A program made the position numbers and the translations under genes. Below, one piece after another: positions 6,091 through 57,884 of a DNA stretch of 64,000 bases. The stretch lies in the sequence record MT682711.1. The stretch is one strand, 5' to 3'. Under the pieces are notes generated by a model that saw only the letters and a program-made list of their open reading frames with translations, had not been told where the DNA came from and made no database searches. The stretch comes from Escherichia phage vB_EcoM_FB. Numbering within the stretch: the stretch's first letter is position 1; each line of letters starts with the position of its first letter.

Positions 6091-6657
6091 TTATGCAAAA
6101 TGAATATCAGCATACTCGACGATAAAGCTCTCAGGAACAACCTTAAAGGTTCCAAGGAATACGATGTTATAGAGCTTAACGCCTTCTTCAACCCACTGGT
6201 CTGTGATGTAACCGGACATACTAGTGGTTTCATAAGTCGGACCATACTTGCAATTGTATTCAAACGGTTTAGGTGAAACGAAAAAGACACCTTTACCTAA
6301 TTTCCATTTAAAATCAACACCGACATGAGATTGGTCAATAGTTTCAACGTCTTGAGCTACTACGCCACGGATATCATTGCTTTCACATACATATCCATCA
6401 TGGGATTCAACTTCTTCAACTACAGGAGCGATGTATCCGGTAAATTCAGTAGATTCCAAGAATTTAGCACGCACATAACCGAATTGAGTTTCGGTCTGGC
6501 CATTTTTAGGAATGATACGCACTTTTACTTCAGAATTTTCTTCACTGACGCCTTCTTTAAGTTGGATGCTAACAACTTCAACTAAACGGCCCGCAGCTTT
6601 TGAACGAGACTTTTTGGATACACGAACAATACCGCCGATATCGGAAATAGTAATCAT
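6091..6657 (-). CDS. hypothetical protein, paralogue of 6730..7281
   Basis: 188 aa; C-terminal YITDQWVEEGVKLYNIVFLGTFKVVPESFIV matches WVTDQWVEDGVELLNVVHAGDFSVVPRSAVV in the neighbour. Confidence 0.6.
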   Translation of the reverse strand: MITISDIGGIVRVSKKSRSKAAGRLVEVVSIQLKEGVSEENSEVKVRIIPKNGQTETQFGYVRAKFLESTEFTGYIAPVVEEVESHDGYVCESNDIRGVVAQDVETIDQSHVGVDFKWKLGKGVFFVSPKPFEYNCKYGPTYETTSMSGYITDQWVEEGVKLYNIVFLGTFKVVPESFIVEYADIHFA

Positions 6658-6691
6658 AATTTTCTCTCTTGGTTAAAGGATTATTCTCCAT

Positions 6692-6728
6692 GAGAGCCAT
6701 TATAACATGGCTCTCGATAAAGTAAACT
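6692..6728 (-). promoter_or_regulatory. early promoter (GTTTAC -35, 17 nt, TATAAT -10) with the -10 inside an inverted repeat
   Basis: rc 6723-6728 GTTTAC; rc 6699-6704 TATAAT; gagagcc (6692-6698) / ggctctc (6709-6715). Confidence 0.55.
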
Positions 6729-6729
6729 A

Positions 6730-7281
6730 TTAATTCAATACATTAACCACTGCACTACGAGGTACTACACTAAAATCACCTGCATGGACAACGTTCAGAA
6801 GCTCAACACCGTCTTCAACCCATTGGTCTGTTACCCATCCACAGATAGGATTATCAAAAGGACGACGGATAGACACAGCAGCACACAGCAGGTCAGTAGG
6901 GTCTTGTTCGACTTCAACTTCTTGGAACAGGATGAACTCTGCTTCATAAACCAAGATTTTCTCTATTTTGTTATTATCTAATCGACGGCCGTGGATGACG
7001 TAAGATTTAGTAAACCAGTCACTTTTGGTAAATTCTTCAACAATAAATTCGCCTTCGCCAAAAACCTCAGTCAGAGTTTTATGGCCAGAAATCAAGGCCT
7101 TAGTTTTAATTTCAGGTTCAACCAGTTTGTAGGTTTTGCCGATTTCGATAGTCTGAGTATTCATAGCAGGTTCCTTAATTTCCAGTGGTTTAACAGGGCA
7201 TACATAAGTGCTTAAAACATCAAAATCAATCAGTTTAGCTGCCGGATTCGGGGTGTATTTAGGGTTGTAATTAAATTTCAT
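6730..7281 (-). CDS. hypothetical protein, paralogue of 6091..6657
   Basis: 183 aa; shared C-terminal domain with the neighbour. Confidence 0.6.
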   Translation of the reverse strand: MKFNYNPKYTPNPAAKLIDFDVLSTYVCPVKPLEIKEPAMNTQTIEIGKTYKLVEPEIKTKALISGHKTLTEVFGEGEFIVEEFTKSDWFTKSYVIHGRRLDNNKIEKILVYEAEFILFQEVEVEQDPTDLLCAAVSIRRPFDNPICGWVTDQWVEDGVELLNVVHAGDFSVVPRSAVVNVLN

Positions 7282-33261: not shown

Positions 33262-33978
33262 ATGAATTATAAATCAATATACGAAAAGCTTATTCAACGA
33301 GCAGTTAATAGAAATTTAACTACCTATAAAGAACGTCATCACATTATACCACAATGTATGGGTGGAACGGATGACGCTTTAAACTTGGTAGACTTAACAC
33401 CTGAAGAACATTACTTGGCTCATCAGTTGTTAGTTAAAATCCATCCAGATAATGTATCACTAGTCTATGCGGCAAGAATGATGACAATTAGCTCACCAAA
33501 TGCTGATAGGTCTAAAAATAAATTATTTGGATGGCTTCGTCGTAAGAATTCAGAAGTCCAAAAGGATAAAGAATTCTCGGAAGAAACCAGAAAGAAAATG
33601 TCGATTTCTGCTTTAAAAAAGCCTAGAGTTACCTGTCCACACTGTGGTAAAACCGGTTTGGTAGGCAATATGAACAGATGGCATTTTGATAATTGTCCTA
33701 AAGGCCCTAATAAAGTGGTTCATACTATACCAAAAGAACAAAAAGATAAAATATCAAACACTTTTAAGAATAAAGTATTTGAATTGGTTAATTGCCAGTT
33801 TTGTGGTATAGAAGGTAAGAAGAGCGTTATAGTAACCCATCAATATTTTTGCAAATTAAACCCTAACCGTAAAAAGAAAGAGGACCCTAAAATAAAGTGT
33901 CCTCATTGCGATAAAGTAGGAATACCTGCCAATATGAAACGTTGGCATTTTGATAATTGCAAATTAAAGCCTCAATAA
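33262..33978 (+). mobile_element. free-standing HNH homing endonuclease gene with C-terminal zinc-ribbon repeats
   Basis: ERHHIIPQCMGG...NLV.L...EHYLAH HNH motif; three repeats of CPHC.K.G...NM.RWHFDNC; only plus-strand gene in the replication cluster, inserted between 46 and the rpbA-position gene. Confidence 0.7.
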
Positions 33979-35887: not shown

Positions 35888-36125
35888 CCTTGATGCATGA
35901 TTCAGCCATATGAATTAATGTTTCTGGAGTATCATCTACCATTACATTAAAGCTAAATTCCACAGCCCAATCAGTAGCAACATAAACTTTAATAAGCTCG
36001 TTGGTATCGCGAGTGCTCACGGCTTCAAACCAGAACTTAATGATATTCGTTTGGTTATCGTCATCAATAACGATGCAGTCGTGTTCTAGTTCAAGGCCTG
36101 ATTTTTTGAATTCATCTAAAGTCAT
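35862..36125 (-). CDS. hypothetical protein
   Basis: 87 aa ORF between 47 and 46. Confidence 0.5.
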   Translation of the reverse strand: MTLDEFKKSGLELEHDCIVIDDDNQTNIIKFWFEAVSTRDTNELIKVYVATDWAVEFSFNVMVDDTPETLIHMAESCIKDAYNDENV

Positions 36126-37144
36126 CGTGTAACCTCATTATAAAGTTGTGCGGCCATAGTCTTAAGGGCTTTAACATCGTCTTCAGTGTGGCCATCAGGA
36201 AGGGCATCGATATAATCATACATCATATCCAAGAGGGACTTAACTTCATCTTCCTCTTCAGAATCATCGATATCAACACTGTTATCTACCTTAGACACAA
36301 TACGTAAAGAGTGAACAACCTTTTCAAGTTCAGATTCGAACTTGGTAAGCCCGTCATCAATTTTATCGACTATAACACGAACCGCAATATTTGTAAAATC
36401 TTTGTAATCGATAGTCGCATTCGGATAATGAATCTTACGATGCCAACAAGTTTCATTGATGATGAAATCCATTTTATGGGTTTCTGTATCGAAAATCCAG
36501 AAGCCACGAGGGTCGTTCTCATCACCTGCAGTCAGGGTCCATGGCGTACCAATATACTTGACGTTTGCTGCATCAGAAATGGTGTGGAAGTGACCAGACC
36601 ATACTTGCTTATACTTCTTAAGGAAATCAGGTTCTAAACCATGTGATTTCATTCCTTTATAGAAATAGAAACCATTTAATTCCCAGTGGCCAATACAGAA
36701 ATCGGCAGTAGTATTTTTGATATGGTCCATGATATCGGTCGTGTTTTCTTCACACATCCATGGAATCAAATCAATTTCTGTACCATCAAAATTAACCGTA
36801 GTAGGTTTCTCAATAACCTTGATATGGTCGTATTTACCCAGAACTTCAGAAGCAGCGTTCGGAGTCAATGTGTTTTTGTAGTGCATATCATGGTTACCAA
36901 CGACCGTATACATGGTAATGCCGTTGGCTTTAAGCAAATCGGAGATTTCGCGAGCGAATTCCATACACTTATGGGTAATTGCTTTACGAACGTCAAAGAT
37001 ATCACCGTATTGAATCCATACAGTAATGCCATTTGCTTTAGAATAATTAATAGCGTCTTGGATACCTTGACGTTGGATATTTTGTACCCACACATCATCG
37101 GCCTTCACTCCAAGGTGCCAGTCACCTGTGTTTAATATTTTCAT
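36122..37144 (-). CDS. 47: recombination nuclease (Mre11/SbcD-like)
   Basis: Phosphoesterase motifs GDWHLG, GDIFD, GNHD; start set to ATG at 37144 (MKILNTGDW), giving 340 aa versus 339 in T4. Confidence 0.9.
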   Translation of the reverse strand: MKILNTGDWHLGVKADDVWVQNIQRQGIQDAINYSKANGITVWIQYGDIFDVRKAITHKCMEFAREISDLLKANGITMYTVVGNHDMHYKNTLTPNAASEVLGKYDHIKVIEKPTTVNFDGTEIDLIPWMCEENTTDIMDHIKNTTADFCIGHWELNGFYFYKGMKSHGLEPDFLKKYKQVWSGHFHTISDAANVKYIGTPWTLTAGDENDPRGFWIFDTETHKMDFIINETCWHRKIHYPNATIDYKDFTNIAVRVIVDKIDDGLTKFESELEKVVHSLRIVSKVDNSVDIDDSEEEDEVKSLLDMMYDYIDALPDGHTEDDVKALKTMAAQLYNEVTR

Positions 37145-37771: not shown

Positions 37772-38066
37772 TGACGATTTCCCAAATTTGTTTGCGGGTA
37801 GATTCCCACATCAATTGAACAAGTTCATCAGTAACAGGTTGACGGTAAATACCACGTAATTTAATTAAAGCGTACTTATATGCTTCAAAGTTGTTTTCAA
37901 GTACAGCGCCTTGGGCATGGAGATTTAAACGACGGATTTCACGAGCATTCTTCTTAAGAATCTTAGCCGCTTGAGAATTAGCTTCTTTAATATTGTGCTC
38001 TTCTAAACGTTGCTGGGCTTCTTCAATTTGCTCATCAGTCAATTGAGAAATGTCATGGCTTTGCAT
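37755..38066 (-). CDS. hypothetical protein
   Basis: 103 aa ORF. Confidence 0.5.
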   Translation of the reverse strand: MQSHDISQLTDEQIEEAQQRLEEHNIKEANSQAAKILKKNAREIRRLNLHAQGAVLENNFEAYKYALIKLRGIYRQPVTDELVQLMWESTRKQIWEIVNGPSK

Positions 38067-38067
38067 A

Positions 38068-38334
38068 TTAATCCTTTGGAGTCAATTCAATAGTGAAGTA
38101 GAAATTAGCGTTCTCAACATGATAACGATAATCTACGTTATTGTCAGGAGAAGTGAATTCAATATTCCTGACGTTAAGTGGGTCAATATCAATAGGAAGG
38201 CCTTTAACATCCCGTAATATCAATTTAATAAAATAAGGGAGTGCTTCGAAGTCTTCCATTCCATCTAAAAGTGGAGTGATATTAATCTGATGTTCCATAT
38301 AAAAAATCCAGTTCACCAACTTTAGGTTCGGCAC
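38068..38334 (-). CDS. hypothetical protein
   Basis: 88 aa ORF. Confidence 0.5.
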
Positions 38335-38839
38335 TCTTATCAGACCCTGGTGCTTTAGTTAAAGAGGTTTCATACTGAGTCATTTTGTCGTAGATATCTT
38401 GGATAAAGGTTTCATCTGCAATACCTACCATGTCGTCATCATTACTGTCATAGACATTATGGACGAAGTAGCTATATTTCTTTGCCATTTCTTTACGTTC
38501 TTTTTTGATACGCTGAACGAAGGCATTAAAACAAGCCATAGTGATATATGCATGTGGGTTGTCGTATTTTGTTTCGTCGAAATTGTGAAGACCTTTAATC
38601 GAAGCTTCGATTCCATCAGCTATCATTTCCTGCCGCCAAGATTGGGTATATCCTGAGAAGTTGAAACGCTTGCTGAGGCCTTCTGCTATAAGCATAATAG
38701 CCAATCCTATAGTATCATTTTGTCTAATGATTTTATTAGGGTCGGTGTTAGCATATAATTCCTGCTTCCAACTTGTAATAGCTTTAAGAAGCTCCTTGTT
38801 ATTTACATAATTATTTTTTGTTAACTTCACCTGATTCAT
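38282..38839 (-). CDS. 55: late-transcription sigma factor
   Basis: NYVNNKELL...[28 protein letters not shown]...[22 protein letters not shown] matches T4 gp55 as recalled; start set to ATG at 38839. Confidence 0.9.
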
Positions 38840-39506
38840 AAGCCCTCTTAAACCTATCAACTAGTGGTCTAAAATTATTTATCGTATATGGATAACCTAG
38901 TTCACAGCATTTGCGCCAGAATTTAGAATAACTAGGGCGTCCTTCCTTAATCCAAAGTTCATGGAACTCATCATATAATACATATGTTGGATTTTTAGCA
39001 AACTTGGAATAATTCTCTATAGAGTAATATTCTTTGTTCTTTTTACTTTTGGCCTCTCTAACTTCAGGATTAGCATTATACTCTTTATGGATTCGACGCA
39101 TCATTTCTCGATGCTCTTCATTTTCCCAAGACTTTTTAATAGAGTTGGAAACCCGCTCTTTATATTCAGGGTCCTGCCAGCGTTCGGTAACTTCTTTAGA
39201 CTGTTCTTCAAGTCTTTCCGGTGTCGGAGGAGCATAACCACCTATACCACCAGGTTTCATATTGACGCAGTTAGTTATTTCGGACATGGCATTTTCTACC
39301 AAAAGCTCTTCAAATTCAAAAGCAAGCTCACTTGTCTCAAAATAACATAAGGCCTCTATATTAAAAGAGCATTTCCCTGAGGCCTTAGCATCTTCTACGA
39401 ATTTGCCACTACCGACATACCCGTCATCTATAAATCCGGTGTGTTTACCGAAATAGTAATAAGTATCATTTTCGGATTTTATAGTGGTCATATAACAATA
39501 GTGCAT
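38811..39506 (-). mobile_element. GIY-YIG homing endonuclease gene (Seg-like)
   Basis: 231 aa; N-terminal YYYFGKH...GYVGSG GIY-YIG motif; basic C-terminal tail; stop overlaps gp55 start. Confidence 0.6.
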
Positions 39507-39563
39507 AATGATTAATCTTTAATTTAAATAATGAATCTATTATATACCAATTGGCTTAAAGCA

Positions 39564-39827
39564 TCAACGGAGTAAGCAATAAGCCTGAAATACGGTTTCA
39601 AGGATTTGTGTGAACTCGGAATAAGAAATTGTATCAGTACATCCATGTTCAGACATATATCCACAAAATTCTTTAAAAAGACCTGGATATTCGCGATGGT
39701 TGTATTTGGAAATATGAGACTTCCATACTAAAGAAGTCTCACCACAAACAAACTCAACATCCATACAGTTATCTATTAAGAAAAATCCGAGACCTTCGTA
39801 GGCGAGGGTGGTGGATATGGGTTTCAT
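39564..39827 (-). CDS. hypothetical protein
   Basis: 87 aa ORF. Confidence 0.5.
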   Translation of the reverse strand: MKPISTTLAYEGLGFFLIDNCMDVEFVCGETSLVWKSHISKYNHREYPGLFKEFCGYMSEHGCTDTISYSEFTQILETVFQAYCLLR

Positions 39828-40090
39828 TGTAGGAATCGAGCTCCTTCCAAGGCATCATCTAGGTTATCGAACTCGTCGACGTAATCAACACCGCCAACCT
39901 CATCTTTTGCATACAGCCAATACTGTTTAAACTCGTATTCAATAATAAAGTGGTCGCCTTCAATTTGAAGAACCCCATCACCATTAAATTGAACTGCATA
40001 ACCTGTAAAGCGGACATCATTCAAGAGTTCTTCTTTCATAGCAATCATTTCCAAGTTTTTATCGTAATTAGAGAGTTTTATTTTAATCAT
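39824..40090 (-). CDS. hypothetical protein
   Basis: 88 aa ORF. Confidence 0.5.
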   Translation of the reverse strand: MIKIKLSNYDKNLEMIAMKEELLNDVRFTGYAVQFNGDGVLQIEGDHFIIEYEFKQYWLYAKDEVGGVDYVDEFDNLDDALEGARFLQ

Positions 40091-40416
40091 TTCGCTGCCT
40101 TAACAATTTTCAGGTCAACAAATTTTTTCTTACGTTGGTTTTTCATACGACGGATAGTTTTATCAGAGATTTCACCAGGGGCCCAAGCTTTAGATTCTAC
40201 ACCAAAGGCAGCGACATCGAATTCATCGAGGATATATTGAACCAGAATTTCACGAATACCGTTCTTACCAATTTTCTGGTCTTTAGAGTGCATGATAGGT
40301 AACAGTTCAGCAACCCATTGGTCAAGAACCTGAGGAGTTACAAAACCAGTTTTCATCAGTTCGTTTACTTTATCGAAAGCGAAAGAGTTCAGTACGTTTT
40401 TAATAGCTTGTGACAT
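40087..40416 (-). CDS. hypothetical protein
   Basis: Track ORF trimmed to ATG at 40416 (MSQAIKNV...) preceded by TGAGGAAATTATT. Confidence 0.5.
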   Translation of the reverse strand: MSQAIKNVLNSFAFDKVNELMKTGFVTPQVLDQWVAELLPIMHSKDQKIGKNGIREILVQYILDEFDVAAFGVESKAWAPGEISDKTIRRMKNQRKKKFVDLKIVKAAK

Positions 40417-40484
40417 AATAATTTCCTCAGTTTTAAAGTTATAATCCGTAGGACCATTATACTCTGGTCCCAAGAGTTTGTAAA

Positions 40485-40685
40485 CTATTTTTGACTCATT
40501 GCACCTTTCCAGCCTTCGTACATCATTGCGGCGGAAATTAACAAAGCGCCTGAACAACTTGAATATTTGTGATTCCAAAACCAGTTCAGAAAAACTTCGT
40601 CATCAATACCTTGGGCTATCATATTTTCAAAGAACTGACGACGAGCTTCAGCAATTCGCTGTGATAATTTAGATTCAGGATTCAT
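40485..40685 (-). CDS. hypothetical protein
   Basis: 66 aa ORF. Confidence 0.4.
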   Translation of the reverse strand: MNPESKLSQRIAEARRQFFENMIAQGIDDEVFLNWFWNHKYSSCSGALLISAAMMYEGWKGAMSQK

Positions 40686-40813
40686 ATTTTCCAGTTACCG
40701 TTTTCATCAATAAATTTAATCCAGTCATTTACTGACCACTTAGTTGTATCGCCTTTTGGAGCAGAATTTAAAGTGTATAATCCTTGTTTAAAAAGCATTC
40801 GTTTGATATTCAT
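40682..40813 (-). CDS. hypothetical small protein
   Basis: Track ORF trimmed to ATG at 40813 with GAGGAAAAC SD. Confidence 0.35.
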   Translation of the reverse strand: MNIKRMLFKQGLYTLNSAPKGDTTKWSVNDWIKFIDENGNWKI

Positions 40814-40820
40814 GTTTTCC

Positions 40821-41114
40821 TCAGCTGTAACGATAACACTCGTTTGATTTACGTTTTGCAACACGATGAGAAGTATTATAATCCAAATCATCCTCAACGT
40901 ATACATCTTTTTTCAACTGACGAACTTCTTTACGCAGTTGACGATTCATCTCATTCTTGACTTCTGAATCAACGCCACGCATACGCTTCCATTTGTCTGA
41001 ACGGAAGATATTTTCTTCAACTTGTTCCTGACTTACGCCGTCCGGTGCTTTACGACGTCCGGAATAATAAAAATCTTTTACAGACAATTCTTTACGACGA
41101 ATAGTTTTACCCAT
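40821..41114 (-). CDS. hypothetical basic protein
   Basis: 97 aa ORF. Confidence 0.5.
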   Translation of the reverse strand: MGKTIRRKELSVKDFYYSGRRKAPDGVSQEQVEENIFRSDKWKRMRGVDSEVKNEMNRQLRKEVRQLKKDVYVEDDLDYNTSHRVAKRKSNECYRYS

Positions 41115-41116
41115 AG

Positions 41117-41371
41117 TTACCTCAGCAGTTTGTATCCAATAAGATTTTTAATGTATTGGACATCTTTGACATCCAAATCTAACTTAATATCTTTCAGGCG
41201 TTCGGCCAGAGTAAGAAATGATACACGTTTCCAATTCTTAACAGGACAGCAATAAGTTTTCGGGCCATTGGCGATTTCAATATTCTTATCAGTGACGGTG
41301 AGAAAAATCAGGCGCTCATCATCCAGATTAAGGGTGACGACATTTTTCATTGAATGTAATTTCAGGCTCAT
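41117..41371 (-). CDS. hypothetical protein
   Basis: 84 aa ORF. Confidence 0.5.
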   Translation of the reverse strand: MSLKLHSMKNVVTLNLDDERLIFLTVTDKNIEIANGPKTYCCPVKNWKRVSFLTLAERLKDIKLDLDVKDVQYIKNLIGYKLLR

Positions 41372-41550
41372 AATTTGATTTCCTTAGCTATTGAACAAAA
41401 CACGCTACGGTCACATACCATCATTGGAATATTTCTATGGTCCAGTACACGATACCATACGTCTGAATCGCTAGCAGCAATTACACGAACCGCACGCCCA
41501 TTCACCAAATAATACTGGTCGGCTTTAATTTCTTTATCTTGGATAGTCAT
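41368..41550 (-). CDS. hypothetical protein
   Basis: 60 aa ORF with GAGGAGAA SD and own promoter. Confidence 0.5.
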   Translation of the reverse strand: MTIQDKEIKADQYYLVNGRAVRVIAASDSDVWYRVLDHRNIPMMVCDRSVFCSIAKEIKL

Positions 41551-41561
41551 AATGTTCTCCT

Positions 41562-41608
41562 CATGTGTTGATAGGATAGACTATAACACGTGAGGAGAGG
41601 AAGTAAAC
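41562..41608 (-). promoter_or_regulatory. early promoter (GTTTAC, TTATAG) with anti-SD in spacer
   Basis: gtaaac 41603-41608; cacgtgaggaga (41587-41598) complementary to SD region ttctcctcatgtg (41555-41567). Confidence 0.5.
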
Positions 41609-41609
41609 A

Positions 41610-41927
41610 CTAATCTTCAATTAAATCTTGGTCATAACCAAGTTCAATCAAAAGCGATTTGAAGGCAGGAATATTTTCTATTTTCTTATTATCGACAAAT
41701 ATGACAGGATAGCGTATCGCTAAGCTCTTGAAGCCTGCACGTTTGGCCAATGATACTATAAGAGGCTTGTCGTATACTGCGCCTGACGGCGTCTGGTTAA
41801 TCACAGGATAGAAAGTATGTAGGATAGAAAGGGAATTTAGGAGCGATAGAACAGCAATGCACCCTGGACAGCGCATGACTGTCTCAGGGATACCGTAAAT
41901 CTCAATTTTAGTTAACTTTTGGTCCAC
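41610..41927 (-). CDS. glutaredoxin-like protein (NrdH-like)
   Basis: 105 aa; CPGC redox motif. Confidence 0.5.
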   Translation of the reverse strand: MDQKLTKIEIYGIPETVMRCPGCIAVLSLLNSLSILHTFYPVINQTPSGAVYDKPLIVSLAKRAGFKSLAIRYPVIFVDNKKIENIPAFKSLLIELGYDQDLIED

Positions 41928-42204
41928 AGGAAATAACTCCTTGGTAGTCCCAAGTTTTTAGAACTTCGTCTTCATTAGTTCCGTATGGGACGTAAATCTG
42001 GATAAGGAACCCGGTATCATCAAAAGAGAAATAGACAGTAGGTTTAATACCATGAATCTCTGACAGAGCATAGATGTCCTTGAGGTCGTCTTCCTTACCT
42101 TTAAAGAATTCAGGGTTCAGGTCACAGTCATGGAAGTACCAATCATCACCAAACTTGTCCCAAGCGGTCCAATTCAAAGCTACATATTCTTCAAAACGTT
42201 TCAT
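41908..42204 (-). CDS. hypothetical protein
   Basis: 98 aa ORF. Confidence 0.5.
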   Translation of the reverse strand: MKRFEEYVALNWTAWDKFGDDWYFHDCDLNPEFFKGKEDDLKDIYALSEIHGIKPTVYFSFDDTGFLIQIYVPYGTNEDEVLKTWDYQGVISCGPKVN

Positions 42205-42428
42205 TCTTTCACCTTCATCATTTTTGCAATAACACTATGAACAGCCTGGATTCGTTTGTCGAACTCGGACCCTTCAAGACCTTTTTCAGTACTCAGAGCA
42301 CCAATAATCATGAACAGCAATCCAAACGGAATAGCCAGGATTAAAAGGCATACGATAAACAGAACTAATGTAATATTGGCCAAGATATCAGAAACAGCAT
42401 TACGAAATTTGTTCATTAAAGAACCCAC
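42201..42428 (-). CDS. small membrane protein
   Basis: 75 aa with hydrophobic TM segment. Confidence 0.5.
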   Translation of the reverse strand: MGSLMNKFRNAVSDILANITLVLFIVCLLILAIPFGLLFMIIGALSTEKGLEGSEFDKRIQAVHSVIAKMMKVKE

Positions 42429-42557
42429 ATGTTAGTTACAACAAATAACCATTGAGCAGGATACTCAACACCCATACGGCGGATAATATCATTCATAGAT
42501 TCAGCTAGAGCATAGAATGTATAGCCATAAAAATTAATCATTTAAGCGATTTCCTCA

Positions 42558-43631
42558 TTAAGATTTCAAATAAGTTATATAACTTTCCAACCATTCAATC
42601 ATTTCTGATTTTTCGGTGGCAGTCATAGGATTAACTATATCCTTAAAACTGTTAAGCATTACTTGGGACGTAACTTTTGTTTTTTCGGATTTTACCAATT
42701 CAATAGAGCTAAGTTTTTTAATATGCTCTTCTTTGCTTTCGACTACTAATTTAATAGCTCTTCCGTCTTTAATAGCTTTATTAGCCTGTCCACGGGTCAT
42801 ACCATAAAACTCTTCTAACTCAGAATTGGATAAAAATTTTGTGCCTGAAGAAACATCTTGGAATTTATAACGTTGACGAGAAATATCAGGCGGAAGGCCC
42901 CAGCGGCCTTTAATAAGGTCGAGGGTTCCTTGAAGAAGCCTGGTTAGATGGTTGCTACTTAAATCATTATTACGAGCAAACTCGTTTTGATTTAGAACTT
43001 CCACTGCTTTATTTTCTTCATAGTCCCATATAGTAAATTTAGAGCAATTATAGGTAACAGAATGTTTTTCTGTTCTAGAACGGCCTAATTGCCACCCAGA
43101 TTTAATATACTCAGCAACTTCATCGGGTTTAACATACTTAGTTTTCTGGCCGATTTTGTACATCATGGGCCAGGAAACGTGTTCGTTTCCTTTATCAAAT
43201 TCCATCCATCTTGCAATATCATCTTCGGATAAATCGTCAAAGCAGTTAGGGTTGAAATGACCGCCAATTTGTTTGTTGAGCCACATAGGGTCTCGTAAAA
43301 CATCATTGGCTAATTGCATTTCCATTTCGGCCATAAGGGTTTTACCCCAAGTAGGATACCACCCTACAATAAGGTACTCTTTAGGGCTTATACCCTTTTC
43401 TATCATTGCGTTTACTTCATTAGATGATGATGTATAGGTTTTCCAATCAGATTCCTCAAATCCTTTTTTAGGACCACGCTTAAATGTGCATGGCGCGGCT
43501 TTGATTCGTTTCCAAATCTTTTTAGCGCCAACATATTTTTTACCGTCTTCAAAAGTGATTACGTAGACAAACCCGATATGGTTTTTAATATCGGTTTCTT
43601 CAAATACCGCCCAATGACCAAAATCTTGCAT
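42558..43631 (-). mobile_element. GIY-YIG homing endonuclease gene (Seg-like)
   Basis: 357 aa; N-terminal GFVYVITFEDGKKYVGAKK GIY-YIG motif; long basic C-terminal region. Confidence 0.55.
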
Positions 43632-43669
43632 GACCTATACCTTTAATAATAATTAGATATAGGTATTTA

Positions 43670-43855
43670 TTATTTTTCAAATGTGCTATAGAACGAGCGA
43701 TGCAACCGTTTAAATTGGCGAATCATCTTTTTGGTAGGACGAGTATACAATCCTACGCAGGTGGCCATAAACTGGTCAGTAGGACTTCCTTTGATAAGAA
43801 GTTTCCAGACCTTACCACCATTTAACTTTTCGGTATAGACTAATTTAGTTTTCAT
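43670..43855 (-). CDS. hypothetical protein
   Basis: 61 aa ORF. Confidence 0.45.
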   Translation of the reverse strand: MKTKLVYTEKLNGGKVWKLLIKGSPTDQFMATCVGLYTRPTKKMIRQFKRLHRSFYSTFEK

Positions 43856-44028
43856 CAGAACGCCCTATCAGAAAAGCGAAGTTGAGCTTCAAGCCAATGG
43901 ATATAATCTGCCGCGGCAAAAATTAAATCAGATTCTTCATCAGATAACTTACGAGAATCTGAAAGCTCGTAAAGCGAATGTTCAATTAGACGGCCTTTAT
44001 GCCGACCTACTTCAATTTTTGTACTCAT
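43855..44028 (-). CDS. hypothetical small protein
   Basis: 57 aa ORF translated by hand (MSTKIEVGRHKGR...); TGATG overlap with the downstream gene. Confidence 0.4.
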   Translation of the reverse strand: MSTKIEVGRHKGRLIEHSLYELSDSRKLSDEESDLIFAAADYIHWLEAQLRFSDRAF

Positions 44029-44068
44029 ACCCAAACTCTATATCGATTAATTCATTGTTTGAAGGTTC

Positions 44069-44098
44069 ATTATACTCTATTTCGGAATCGTTGTAAAC
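44069..44098 (-). promoter_or_regulatory. early promoter (GTTTAC, 18 nt, TATAAT)
   Basis: gtaaac 44093-44098; rc 44069-44074 TATAAT. Confidence 0.5.
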
Positions 44099-44153
44099 GG
44101 GTTCCTCTGGCTCGGTAGGTTCTATCGTATCCCACCGAGCGACATACCATGGC

Positions 44154-44462
44154 TTAACGGTCACACCACCAACTACTTACTTCAAAATCAGGTTCACCGT
44201 GTTCCCAGTACCAAGGACCGACTGGATGCCAATCACCGTGTTCATCTTCTTCAAATTCTTCAGATTCAAGGCCAACGTATTGCCATTGGACTTCATAAGC
44301 AGTGCCACCGATTACAACGGTGTTCTCGCCATATGGATGAGCTACAGCAAAGTCTACACCTTCTGCTTTAGCCAGCCAAACCATATATTCGTATAGTTTA
44401 TATTCTAGGTCATCTTCGGTACCATCACCTAGAAAAATGGTTTGTTCGTTTAATTCAATCAT
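44154..44462 (-). CDS. hypothetical acidic protein
   Basis: Track ORF trimmed to ATG at 44462 (MIELNEQ...), ATGA overlap with upstream small ORF. Confidence 0.5.
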   Translation of the reverse strand: MIELNEQTIFLGDGTEDDLEYKLYEYMVWLAKAEGVDFAVAHPYGENTVVIGGTAYEVQWQYVGLESEEFEEDEHGDWHPVGPWYWEHGEPDFEVSSWWCDR

Positions 44463-44620
44463 TTGAAGTTCCAGAATGAAGCACCAACCAGAAATAAAGG
44501 CCAACAAATCATAGACGTCAGCCATGAACAAAAGTCACCTGAATCATCTAATTTAGCTAGGGTCTTAGCATAACCAATACCGATGATAAGATACAAAACA
44601 ACCAACATTAATTCAATCAT
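44459..44620 (-). CDS. small membrane protein
   Basis: 53 aa hydrophobic ORF translated by hand; ATGA overlap with nrdC stop. Confidence 0.4.
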   Translation of the reverse strand: MIELMLVVLYLIIGIGYAKTLAKLDDSGDFCSWLTSMICWPLFLVGASFWNFK

Positions 44621-44880
44621 TTGAAATACGCTCGCAGTTGGTCAAAGCCACCAATATGACTTCCATCAGGGGCAAATACTTGCGGCATGGTCAAACCGAT
44701 TTGAGATTCGTGACCAAGCGCAGCCAGGAGTTGAGCAATCTTCTCATCATCAAATACGCCTTTTTCCGGCATCACGTTAATGAATTCGTAAGGTTGTTTC
44801 TTAACATCAAGCAGACGTTTGGCATTATCGCAGAAAACACAACGGTGAATATTTGAATCATAACCATAAACTTTAAACAT
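44617..44880 (-). CDS. nrdC: thioredoxin/glutaredoxin NrdC
   Basis: 87 aa; MFKVYGYDSNIHRCVFCDNAKRLL... closely matches T4 NrdC as recalled, including the CVFC motif. Confidence 0.85.
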   Translation of the reverse strand: MFKVYGYDSNIHRCVFCDNAKRLLDVKKQPYEFINVMPEKGVFDDEKIAQLLAALGHESQIGLTMPQVFAPDGSHIGGFDQLRAYFK

Positions 44881-44881
44881 T

Positions 44882-45118
44882 TTAAATTCCTAATATTTGT
44901 TTGAATGCTTCAGAACGGTCAAGTTCTGTTCCATATTTTTCCATGTGCTCATATTTTAAATTATACACATCAGATAGTATATTATTATACGAGCGAGTTA
45001 AAGCAGATTTCAATACTGAATAACTGTCCGGAAATTTACCATGCTCTTTATAATAAGCTAGAGTAAGTTCTCGGACTGCCTTATCGGCAGCCTCTACATA
45101 TTCTTTACGCTTTGCCAT
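44882..45118 (-). CDS. hypothetical protein
   Basis: Track ORF trimmed to internal ATG (MAKRKEY...). Confidence 0.45.
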
Positions 45119-57178: not shown

Positions 57179-57884
57179 TAAGTCCTCGGTAATCTACATT
57201 AGGGAAGCCATTCTTAATTGCGATTTTACTAAATCTTCCACACTTTGGTTTATTATTATCTACCCATAATTTATATAATTGTGAATACATTGGTTCACGC
57301 CATATAGGAGCCTTTCGCAAAGAGGCCTTTTTCCTTTCTATAGTTTCCTTAGAATTTTGTATGGCTTTAAATTTTTGTCTATTTTCAGGATTTTCAAAAT
57401 ACTTAACCCGTTTTTCAGACATTTTAGCTTTTACTTTTGGCGAATTTAAAATTTCTTTGAGCCGTTCTTTAGAGCCTTCCTTTTCAAAATATTTTATTAA
57501 AGCCTTTGAATGGGCCGCCCTATTTTCATTTTTAGAGAAGAATAAAATTTTATTAATAGATTGCAGTTTTGAAAATGATTCTTTAGCCAACTTATAATTT
57601 TCAGCATCTACAAAATAAGACCTTTGCTTTGAATTTGAAGTAGAGCTCATATTTAGCCAAGCAAAATTCAACCCGTAGTGGTTTGGATTAGCTTTGGCTA
57701 AATACATATGGGCTAAATAGTGTTCGTCAGCATAAAGCTCGACTAAATTGTCTTGGGTGTCAGGACCACCAACACAACTCGGTATTATATGGTGCTTTTC
57801 TGTATAGGCATCATTAGGTGTATCCCTAGATAAGGCAGCATTTATTATTTTATAGTAGTCATATGGATATTTTATAGTTTCCAT
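57150..57884 (-). mobile_element. free-standing HNH homing endonuclease gene
   Basis: 244 aa; EKHHIIPSCVGG...NLV.L...EHYLAH closely matches the plus-strand HNH gene at 33262; basic C-terminal region. Confidence 0.65.

Follow-up and report, generated by a model that had tools for sequence, protein, structure and literature searches.

A chimeric GIY-YIG nuclease gene occupies the endonuclease VII (gene 49) slot in a Dhakavirus and in other T4-type phages

Endonuclease VII, the product of T4 gene 49 (gp49), is the textbook phage Holliday-junction resolvase and is treated as essential for T4 DNA packaging. What stands in its place in a T4-type phage whose gene 49 cannot be found? This question is raised by Escherichia phage vB_EcoM_FB, from which a stretch of 64,000 nucleotides (nt) was analysed (sequence record MT682711.1; hereafter the window). 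The window belongs to a T4-type phage of the genus Dhakavirus (the JS98, IME08 and Bp7 group), and every gene between 36 and 47 kb lies on the minus strand. An earlier reading of the letters alone (the sequence-only reading) had reported two GIY-YIG, Seg-like endonuclease genes in this region and the absence of nrdD, nrdG and a gene for endonuclease VII. Both open reading frames (ORFs), here named ORF1 and ORF2, were recovered on the minus strand (Table 1), and this paper is mainly concerned with ORF2.

The reported absences were borne out. No homologue was found in the window by tblastn and tblastx with T4 NrdG, the T4 nrdD region and the gp49 proteins of T4 and IME08. For the part of the phage genome (about 170 kb) beyond the window, the complete 171-kb genome of Salmonella phage vB_SalD_ABTNLS3 was used as a stand-in. 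It is the closest relative, with 95% identity to positions 38000-44900 over 97% of the length; further matches to this interval came from Bp7, PSD9, E33, LQ5, IME08 and others. The same queries found no homologue in the complete ABTNLS3 genome.

ORF2 is located where IME08 has gene 49. In IME08 gene 55.8 is directly followed by gene 49 (6626..7102 of the IME08 locus, L002), in an interval syntenic with the ORF2 locus. Homology between the window and IME08 ends at 42557, the base after the ORF2 stop codon, which corresponds to L002 6645, a position within gene 49, 20 nt from its 3′ end. The match restarts at window position 43688 (L002 7238). According to these break points, ORF2 and its leader replace L002 6646..7237, almost exactly gene 49 and its leader. 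No divergence gradient above background was seen in the ORF2 flanks when compared with IME08. The box AATAAATAC ahead of the ORF2 ATG also precedes gene 49 in T4 and IME08, and ATAAATA is invariant in the upstream alignment of window ORF2, T4 and IME08 gene 49, and the ORF2 homologues of PSD2001, S16, TG1 and RB16. The T4 late-promoter consensus is TATAAATA, which the box resembles, and the box would act as a late promoter of ORF2. ORF2 is allelic to gene 49, as shown by its position, the gene 49 relics and the exclusivity described below. The missing gene 49 and the Seg-like gene, which the sequence-only reading had listed as separate facts, thus belong to one event: ORF2 fills the slot and keeps the upstream box, 20 nt of gene 49 and a helix derived from gp49.

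Pfam SegE_GIY-YIG (PF19835) matched residues 10-122 of ORF2 with E 4.8e-34 (117.7 bits, cut-off 25), and phrog_7363, annotated as 'homing endonuclease', matched the full length with E 5e-179. No match was obtained in NCBIfam, and the PDB sequence search with the ORF2 family profile gave nothing meaningful. ORF2 is a member of the GIY-YIG superfamily, with a three-stranded sheet, flanking helices and the conserved Tyr, Tyr, Gly, basic, Glu and Asn residues; homologues show no variation at the catalytic positions. The AlphaFold model (predicted local distance difference test 80.6, predicted template modelling score 0.39) consists of a GIY-YIG domain, a poorly ordered linker, and beta-hairpin and helical modules with a long helix at the end. 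Pfam detected the endonuclease VII catalytic domain PF02945 (H-N-H/zinc) neither in ORF2 nor in the longer relatives described below, and it did not detect the endonuclease VII dimerisation domain PF09124 in the window ORF2. An exhaustive profile search with the ORF2 family gave 1284 matches, mostly to the GIY-YIG domain alone and many in proteins of about 130-150 amino acids, with few full-length relatives beyond those already found.

Sequence comparison indicates that ORF2 is chimeric and partly built from gene 49. The best tblastn match of T4 gp49 in the window was the last 13 codons of ORF2, where IEWLESYITYLKS aligned with gp49 residues 85-97, LEWLENLLTYLKS (9/13 identical, E 0.049). This tail was also the best match of T4 gp49 across the whole ABTNLS3 genome. 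The pattern I-WL--Y--YLK is kept in the tail of 20 sequences of the 357-residue type (short form), and hhalign of the short-form family against gp49 gave a single alignment, 344-360 against 82-98, with E 0.035. Residues 85-97 of gp49 are what we take to be a helix. In T4 gp49 Pfam places the Endonuclease_7 catalytic domain at 9-96 and the dimerisation domain at 104-157. Three metagenomic relatives (long forms), P0023 (427 amino acids), P0024 (432) and P0025 (499), run past the tail helix into the full endonuclease VII C-terminal region, and the short-form tail helix is collinear with them. All three have both PF19835 and PF09124, the latter with 45-59 bits (cut-off 22). P0023 342-424 matched gp49 76-157 in BLASTP with E 4e-16, and P0025 (L016 6001-7500) ends in two tandem copies of the dimerisation domain. 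The genes of P0024 and P0025 are both in the gene 49 slot, upstream of nrdD.

A second relic is found in PSD2001 (Gaprivervirus). Its ORF2 homologue is followed by a 46-amino-acid ORF annotated as 'endonuclease VII', which matches gp49 118-155 at 82% and overlaps nrdD. The DNA between the two encodes FKKQLRKSLK with its stop codon and the opening 22 codons (MINFYG..IIRR) of the small ORF found behind gene 49 in Dhakavirus. At the junction MINFYG..IIRR/LGKEEM this Dhakavirus-type piece meets the resident gene 49 near codon 117, indicating that the cassette arrived by lateral transfer together with Dhakavirus-type flanking DNA, including the 5′ part of the phrog_3350 ORF.

Exclusivity of ORF2 and gp49 was counted with a composite tblastn query, in which ORF2 residues 1-344 were joined to T4 gp49. 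T4 gp49 as a query still picked up homologues of 40% identity (in phages of Vibrio, Aeromonas, Klebsiella and Cronobacter), and the composite query is therefore sensitive enough for this count. A full-length ORF2 homologue without a gp49 match elsewhere in the genome was found in 43 records (about 30 phages): seven Dhakaviruses, the S16 group, TG1, phiR1-RT, TH15, MHG19, avDM1, avDM2, avDM5, leE, Cronuts, KLB1, KLB21, KP13MC5-1, Ac42, RB16 and CPRSA. PSD2001 is one further carrier, with gp49 only as the relic. Among about 40 Dhakavirus genomes in the database, ORF2 was present in seven (E33, LQ5, Bp7, ABTNLS3, 04086, PSD9 and vB_EcoM_005, to which the window is added) and gp49 in about 33; no genome had both and none had neither. 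The carrier state appears fixed in the Gelderlandvirus S16 group and in Tegunavirus. The dimorphism of gene 49 and ORF2 recurs in Gaprivervirus and in the RB16 group. In the latter, an 'endonuclease VII' gene lies between nrdC and nrdD in Lw1, phi5, leN, HK6, EC-W1, Maroon and others, and an ORF2 homologue is found at the same place in RB16, Cronuts, leE, KLB1/21 and CPRSA/B, with flanks 90-94% identical.

The homologues in S16, TG1 and RB16 are full length, 57-71% identical to ORF2 in amino acid sequence and located in the same slot. That of S16 (Gelderlandvirus) overlaps nrdD by 4 bp, like gene 49 in T4, that of TG1 (Tegunavirus) directly follows pin, and that of RB16 (RB16p243, 57% identical) lies between nrdC and nrdD. 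The slot is also filled by homologues in PSD2001 and two metagenomic contigs. The homologue of Aeromonas phage 65 (65p046, 298 amino acids, L015 4001-4897) is 36% identical over the N-terminal 237 amino acids and lies outside the slot, between nrdA and gene 35 on the plus strand, opposite to its neighbours. Occupancy of the gene 49 slot is thus not universal in the wider ORF2 family. Sporadic presence among close relatives between conserved flanks is expected of a homing endonuclease gene and was found for ORF2, but the insertion did not spare the host gene: 20 nt of gene 49 are left (46 codons in PSD2001).

ORF2 is under purifying selection. It differs from the ABTNLS3 copy by 70 synonymous and 15 non-synonymous changes, giving a ratio of non-synonymous to synonymous divergence (dN/dS) of 0.04. 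Constraint across genera is far stronger on the catalytic and linker half than on the C-terminal half. The synonymous divergence (dS) of ORF2 from ABTNLS3 is 0.44, against 0-0.09 for the adjacent 55.8, orf71 and nrdH, and the ORF2 leader matches at 41-42/50 nt (window 42558-43731 compared with ABTNLS3 L003 7063-8236). This suggests that the window phage and ABTNLS3 carry different ORF2 alleles on near-identical backbones, with repeated exchange at the locus. The Bp7 copy of ORF2 (L001 6380-7457) has three 1-nt deletions which jointly restore the frame, two of them in A-runs; RefSeq annotates this copy as an 816-bp 'homing endonuclease' and a 108-bp ORF. The deletions are probably homopolymer sequencing errors.

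With moderate confidence, we propose that ORF2 is a mobile chimeric nuclease gene which has displaced gene 49 and probably covers its function. The gp49 C-terminal part of the long forms suggests that the family was born from gp49 by exchange of its catalytic part for a GIY-YIG module. The H-N-H/zinc part, about residues 1-80, would have given way to a SegE/I-TevII-type GIY-YIG nuclease that brought along an I-TevI/I-HmuI-like DNA-binding extension, leaving gp49 residues of about 76-157, including the dimerisation domain, which the long forms still carry. For the 357-residue form the best account is that about codons 98-146 were later deleted internally; the deletion would have left the out-of-frame 3′ relic and, of gp49 itself, the helix of residues 85-97 alone. 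The cassette would spread between phages when the resident gene 49 is replaced through double-strand-break or recombinational repair, as in intronless homing. ORF2 would be transcribed from the gene 49 position under the late-promoter-like box. Its nuclease would debranch replicative or recombinant DNA before packaging or would make debranching dispensable, which we infer from the carriers having no endonuclease VII.

That ORF2 functionally substitutes for endonuclease VII seems to us at best an even chance. The resolvase reading draws, indirectly, on the slot, the gp49 exclusivity, the promoter box and the fused dimerisation domain. In T4 gp49 is essential, and RB16 and Aeromonas phage 65 appear to get around the need for it with putative alternative nucleases (Petrov et al. 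2010, PMC2993671); both of these phages carry ORF2 homologues. gp49 is associated with the portal and releases packaging motors that have stalled on branched DNA (PMC9958956), a role in which a replacement under the control of this late signal would make sense. A bolder form of the proposal, which we put forward as possible and tentative, is that the ORF2 family is a domain-swapped, non-orthologous replacement of endonuclease VII. It would be a junction-resolving or debranching GIY-YIG enzyme, a viral analogue of SLX1, and the long forms would dimerise through the endonuclease VII domain. It would at the same time be selfish, a cassette homing into gene 49 that eliminates the enzyme whose place it takes and so becomes indispensable.

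Several points weigh against a role of ORF2 in place of endonuclease VII. A monomer-type catalytic domain, a linker and extended DNA-binding modules are the architecture of a sequence-directed homing endonuclease, not of a dimeric structure-selective resolvase, and the short form is without the endonuclease VII dimerisation domain. Exclusivity is partly automatic because ORF2 and gene 49 compete for one locus. Defects in T4 gene 49 can be partly suppressed when recombination is lowered (uvsX/uvsY). Homing is only reduced in gene 49 mutants (PMC2988022). From these last two points, the loss of endonuclease VII might simply be tolerated. If the Bp7 deletions were real, Bp7 would be without an intact ORF2 and without gp49. 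The published alternative nucleases, RB16ORF270c and 65ORF061w, are only presumably the same as RB16p243 and 65p046.

The alternative that survives best, although we consider it unlikely, takes ORF2 as a purely selfish Seg-type endonuclease with its target in or beside gene 49. Imprecise repair would have erased gene 49, endonuclease VII would be dispensable since the terminase nuclease, gp46/47 or host RuvC would clear branches, and ORF2 would have no role in debranching. The modular homing-endonuclease fold, the RefSeq name of the homologues ('homing endonuclease') and the mobility shown by the relics and the transferred flank all agree with this alternative. So does the fast evolution of the DNA-binding region, as expected for target tracking, and the neighbourhood is crowded with SegE-type and HNH genes (T4 mobC, I-TevII and the nrdD-splitting gene of F1). 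However, gp49 is described as essential in T4 (PMC2993671), all of the full-length carriers (about 30 phages) are without gp49 with whole genera appearing fixed, and the number of Dhakavirus genomes lacking both genes is zero. The dN/dS value and the near-invariant catalytic and linker regions across genera would be unusual for a long-fixed selfish gene, and a purely selfish insertion does not account for the preservation under selection of the endonuclease VII dimerisation domain in the long forms.

A generic hyperplastic region, in which nrdD, nrdG and gene 49 were lost in one event and the gap was later filled by unrelated mobile nucleases, is very improbable. It is true that 5 kb hold two optional nuclease genes and that three T4 genes are missing from the stretch between 55 and nrdC, but the losses are separate. 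A second composite tblastn query, a Dhakavirus-specific 300-amino-acid protein fused to T4 NrdG, matched at one place only in each of the about 40 Dhakavirus genomes, indicating that NrdG is absent from all of them, and at two places in the controls T4 and VR20; gene 49 is present in about 33 of the same genomes. Loss of the anaerobic reductase is an old genus trait of Dhakavirus and is unrelated to the nuclease genes. Moreover, ORF1 and ORF2 are distributed independently, the other ORFs are syntenic with T4, IME08 and Bp7, and the junctions of ORF2 lie at the edges of gene 49. The sequence-only reading had described the interval as a remodelled hotspot populated by mobile nucleases and small ORFs. 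This stands in so far as both nuclease genes are optional and mobile in the genus, and fails for nrdD and nrdG, whose loss is genus-wide and not local, and for the small ORFs, which are the conserved T4-type set of 55.1-55.8, 49.1, 49.3 and Pin and no filler. Least probable of all is an assembly or annotation artefact with gene 49 elsewhere in the phage genome: the window does show 64 kb of about 170 kb, but the 95% identical ABTNLS3 has the same two ORFs and no gp49 match in 171 kb, six other ORF2-carrying Dhakaviruses are also without gp49, and the 3′ relic of gene 49 stands directly behind ORF2.

Both ORF1 and ORF2 belong to known kinds of genes, and the idea that gp49 can be substituted is already published (2006, 2010). 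Petrov et al. reportedly suggested in 2006 that another nuclease replaces gp49. Compared with T4 gp49, which resolves Holliday junctions and branches and is required for packaging, ORF2 has the same slot and the same upstream ATAAATA box, and a region of about 345 amino acids with GIY-YIG and DNA-binding parts stands in place of the H-N-H/zinc region, which in gp49 lies within Endonuclease_7. The family likeness to gp49 is confined to the last 13 residues in ORF2 and extends over gp49 residues of about 76-157 in the long forms. Like T4 SegE, I-TevII and the structural archetype I-TevI, ORF2 combines a catalytic domain, a linker and DNA-binding modules and spreads laterally. Unlike SegE and I-TevII, it is conserved like core genes across genera. 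Classical Seg genes lie between genes and leave their neighbours intact, whereas ORF2 replaces a gene of the essential class and incorporates part of it. The homing endonuclease F-CphI of cyanophage S-PM2, which has an endonuclease VII catalytic motif, is an example of module exchange between endonuclease VII and homing enzymes (PMC6083498). It is the reciprocal case: F-CphI borrows the endonuclease VII catalytic domain, and the ORF2 family drops this domain and keeps the C-terminal part. With SLX1, the eukaryotic GIY-YIG subunit of the SLX1-SLX4 resolvase, no specific relationship was seen beyond the fold; SLX1 needs SLX4 and has a RING/PHD domain.

RB16ORF270c and 65ORF061w were named as 'putative alternative nucleases' on the same idea, namely that the need for gp49 is circumvented. 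The 2010 review of Petrov et al. (PMC2993671) does not mention a chimeric origin, fusions with endonuclease VII domains, relics or dimorphism at the genus level, and our literature search found no paper on a gp49-derived tail, on fusions of GIY-YIG with the endonuclease VII dimerisation domain, on the relics or on a strict dimorphism in three lineages. The locus offers a clean natural dimorphism in several genera, either gene 49 or the GIY-YIG chimera and never both or neither, with nearly isogenic pairs such as IME08 or JS98 against ABTNLS3 or E33. It raises the questions of whether a GIY-YIG enzyme can debranch DNA for packaging, how the catalytic module of a resolvase is exchanged, and whether a homing endonuclease can secure its retention by replacing an essential gene. 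It also bears on annotation: genes of the ORF2 type go under the names 'hypothetical protein' or 'homing endonuclease', and the absence of gene 49 from the genomes of therapeutic phages is overlooked.

Endonuclease genes have also entered the neighbouring nrdD. This gene is split by an inserted I-HmuI/NUMOD-like endonuclease gene in a metagenomic T4-like contig (L016 7497-10732) and by a SegE-type GIY-YIG gene in Tequatrovirus F1 (L021 1701-3995). Such genes have landed repeatedly in the neighbourhood of 49 and nrdD. The one close to gene 49 in F1/HY03 was considered as an unfused precursor of ORF2 and was rejected; it lies inside nrdD and has the catalytic domain alone in common with ORF2.

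The other nuclease gene, ORF1, appears from its sequence to be an ordinary SegF-like homing endonuclease cassette unrelated to ORF2. It had no match in Pfam (up to E 10) or NCBIfam, and the PDB sequence search found nothing. T4 SegF itself is without a Pfam match, so the negative result for ORF1 in Pfam says little. phrog_314, annotated as 'homing endonuclease', matched ORF1 with E 6.5e-20, and tblastn against T4 SegF, an established GIY-YIG enzyme, aligned residues 4-221, over the full length, with 24% identity and E 2e-6. Y18, G20, Y30, G32-S33-G34, E66 and N82 are common to both proteins, and ORF1 has the GIY-YIG fold with its motif residues. Profile searches were positive for the GIY-YIG domain of ORF2 through PF19835 and mixed for ORF1, with the phrog_314 match and none in Pfam or NCBIfam. 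An ORF1 homologue, P0048, gave a weak PF19835 match (E 7.7e-4) below the cut-off. No relationship was detected by hhalign between the ORF1 and ORF2 families, indicating that the two are not recent paralogues. The ORF1 reading frame offers two ATG codons at a distance of five codons (MHYCYMTT..., window 39492-39506). P0047, a homologue 68% identical to ORF1, starts at the second, and the true ORF1 start may be 39491.

The ORF1 cassette (38822..39555) is absent from Bp7 and IME08. Among database phages it was found only in ABTNLS3 (100% identity) and LHE83 (99.9%), which makes three genomes with the window, and a collection of 5.8 billion sequences contained 3 protein clusters of ORF1. LHE83 has gene 49 together with ORF1, indicating that ORF1 and ORF2 are independent of each other. 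The overlap of ORF1 with the start of gene 55, reported in the sequence-only reading, amounts to 29 nt: the ORF1 stop is at 38811 and the gene 55 ATG, according to the annotation in relatives, at 38839. In the 250 nt of gene 55 next to ORF1, successive blocks of 50 nt matched Bp7 at 46, 44, 38, 31 (IME08, 30) and 38 positions, and the rest of the gene matched Bp7 and IME08 at 49-50/50 nt (98-100% identical). The divergent tract is an allele linked to ORF1 and possibly holds a cleavage-resistant target site, which would fit a Seg-type element by analogy with SegF and gene 56. It may be a co-conversion tract of ORF1, a reading weakened by the occurrence of the same gene 55 allele without ORF1 in MX01 and vB_EcoM_005. 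As segF does with gene 56 of T4, ORF1 borders on an essential gene, and the near end of gene 55 is a divergent allele. Unlike segF, which lies between genes 56 and soc, ORF1 is upstream of gene 55 and overlaps its start, and it is very rare, with 2 phage records.

The remaining features of the region are given in Table 1. The sequence-only reading had recognised a CPGC glutaredoxin-like ORF as the sole T4 gene left in the interval. This ORF is a true NrdH, and Pin, 49.1, 49.3, 55.8, 55.2/DUF7570 and other 55.x ORFs are recognisable as well.

Table 1. Coordinates of ORF1, ORF2 and surrounding features in the window.
Feature	Coordinates	Strand	Remarks
ORF1, 231-amino-acid SegF-like free-standing GIY-YIG homing endonuclease gene (predicted)	38811..39506	-	
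gene 55 (late sigma factor)	38282..38839	-	29-nt overlap of its start with the 3′ end of ORF1
divergent 5′ tract of gene 55 adjoining ORF1	38590..38839	-	
nrdH, glutaredoxin-like, CPGC	41610..41927	-	T4 NrdH, 59% identity over 103 aligned positions, E 2.7e-33; phrog_22
55.8 homologue	42240..42416		
41-amino-acid ORF, phrog_3350, downstream of ORF2	42416..42541	-	conserved neighbour of gene 49 in Dhakavirus
gene 49 relic, last 20 nt, RKSLK and stop, out of frame with ORF2	42538..42557	-	directly after the ORF2 stop
ORF2, 357-amino-acid chimeric GIY-YIG nuclease in the gene 49 slot	42558..43631	-	ORF list, Pfam, phrog_7363
ORF2 residues 345-357 (IEWLESYITYLKS), terminal helix from gp49 residues 85-97	42561..42599	-	tblastn, hhalign
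ORF2 residues ~193-340, extended beta-hairpin and helical region	42612..43055	-	like homing-endonuclease DNA-binding modules; fastest-evolving part
ORF2 residues 10-122, SegE/I-TevII-type GIY-YIG catalytic domain	43266..43604	-	
AATAAATA box, late-promoter-like	43664..43671	-	~33 nt ahead of the ORF2 start codon
short Pin-like ORF (inhibitor of host Lon protease)	43855..44034	-	phrog_9092, E 1.3e-41; T4 Pin 102-146, E 8.6e-7
49.1 homologue	44015..44161		
49.3 homologue	44157..44462		

Outside this region, T4 MobC-like (HNH) homing-endonuclease matches were found at window 33262-33639 on the plus strand (35% identity, E 3.5e-17) and at 57582-57875 on the minus strand (38% identity, E 2.9e-8). 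Counted with ORF1 and ORF2, the window holds at least four endonuclease-like genes. High dS values relative to ABTNLS3 were also seen in gene 55.1 (39824-40090; 0.64) and gene 47 (36122-37144; 0.34), a sign of mosaic recombination tracts among near-identical neighbour genes.

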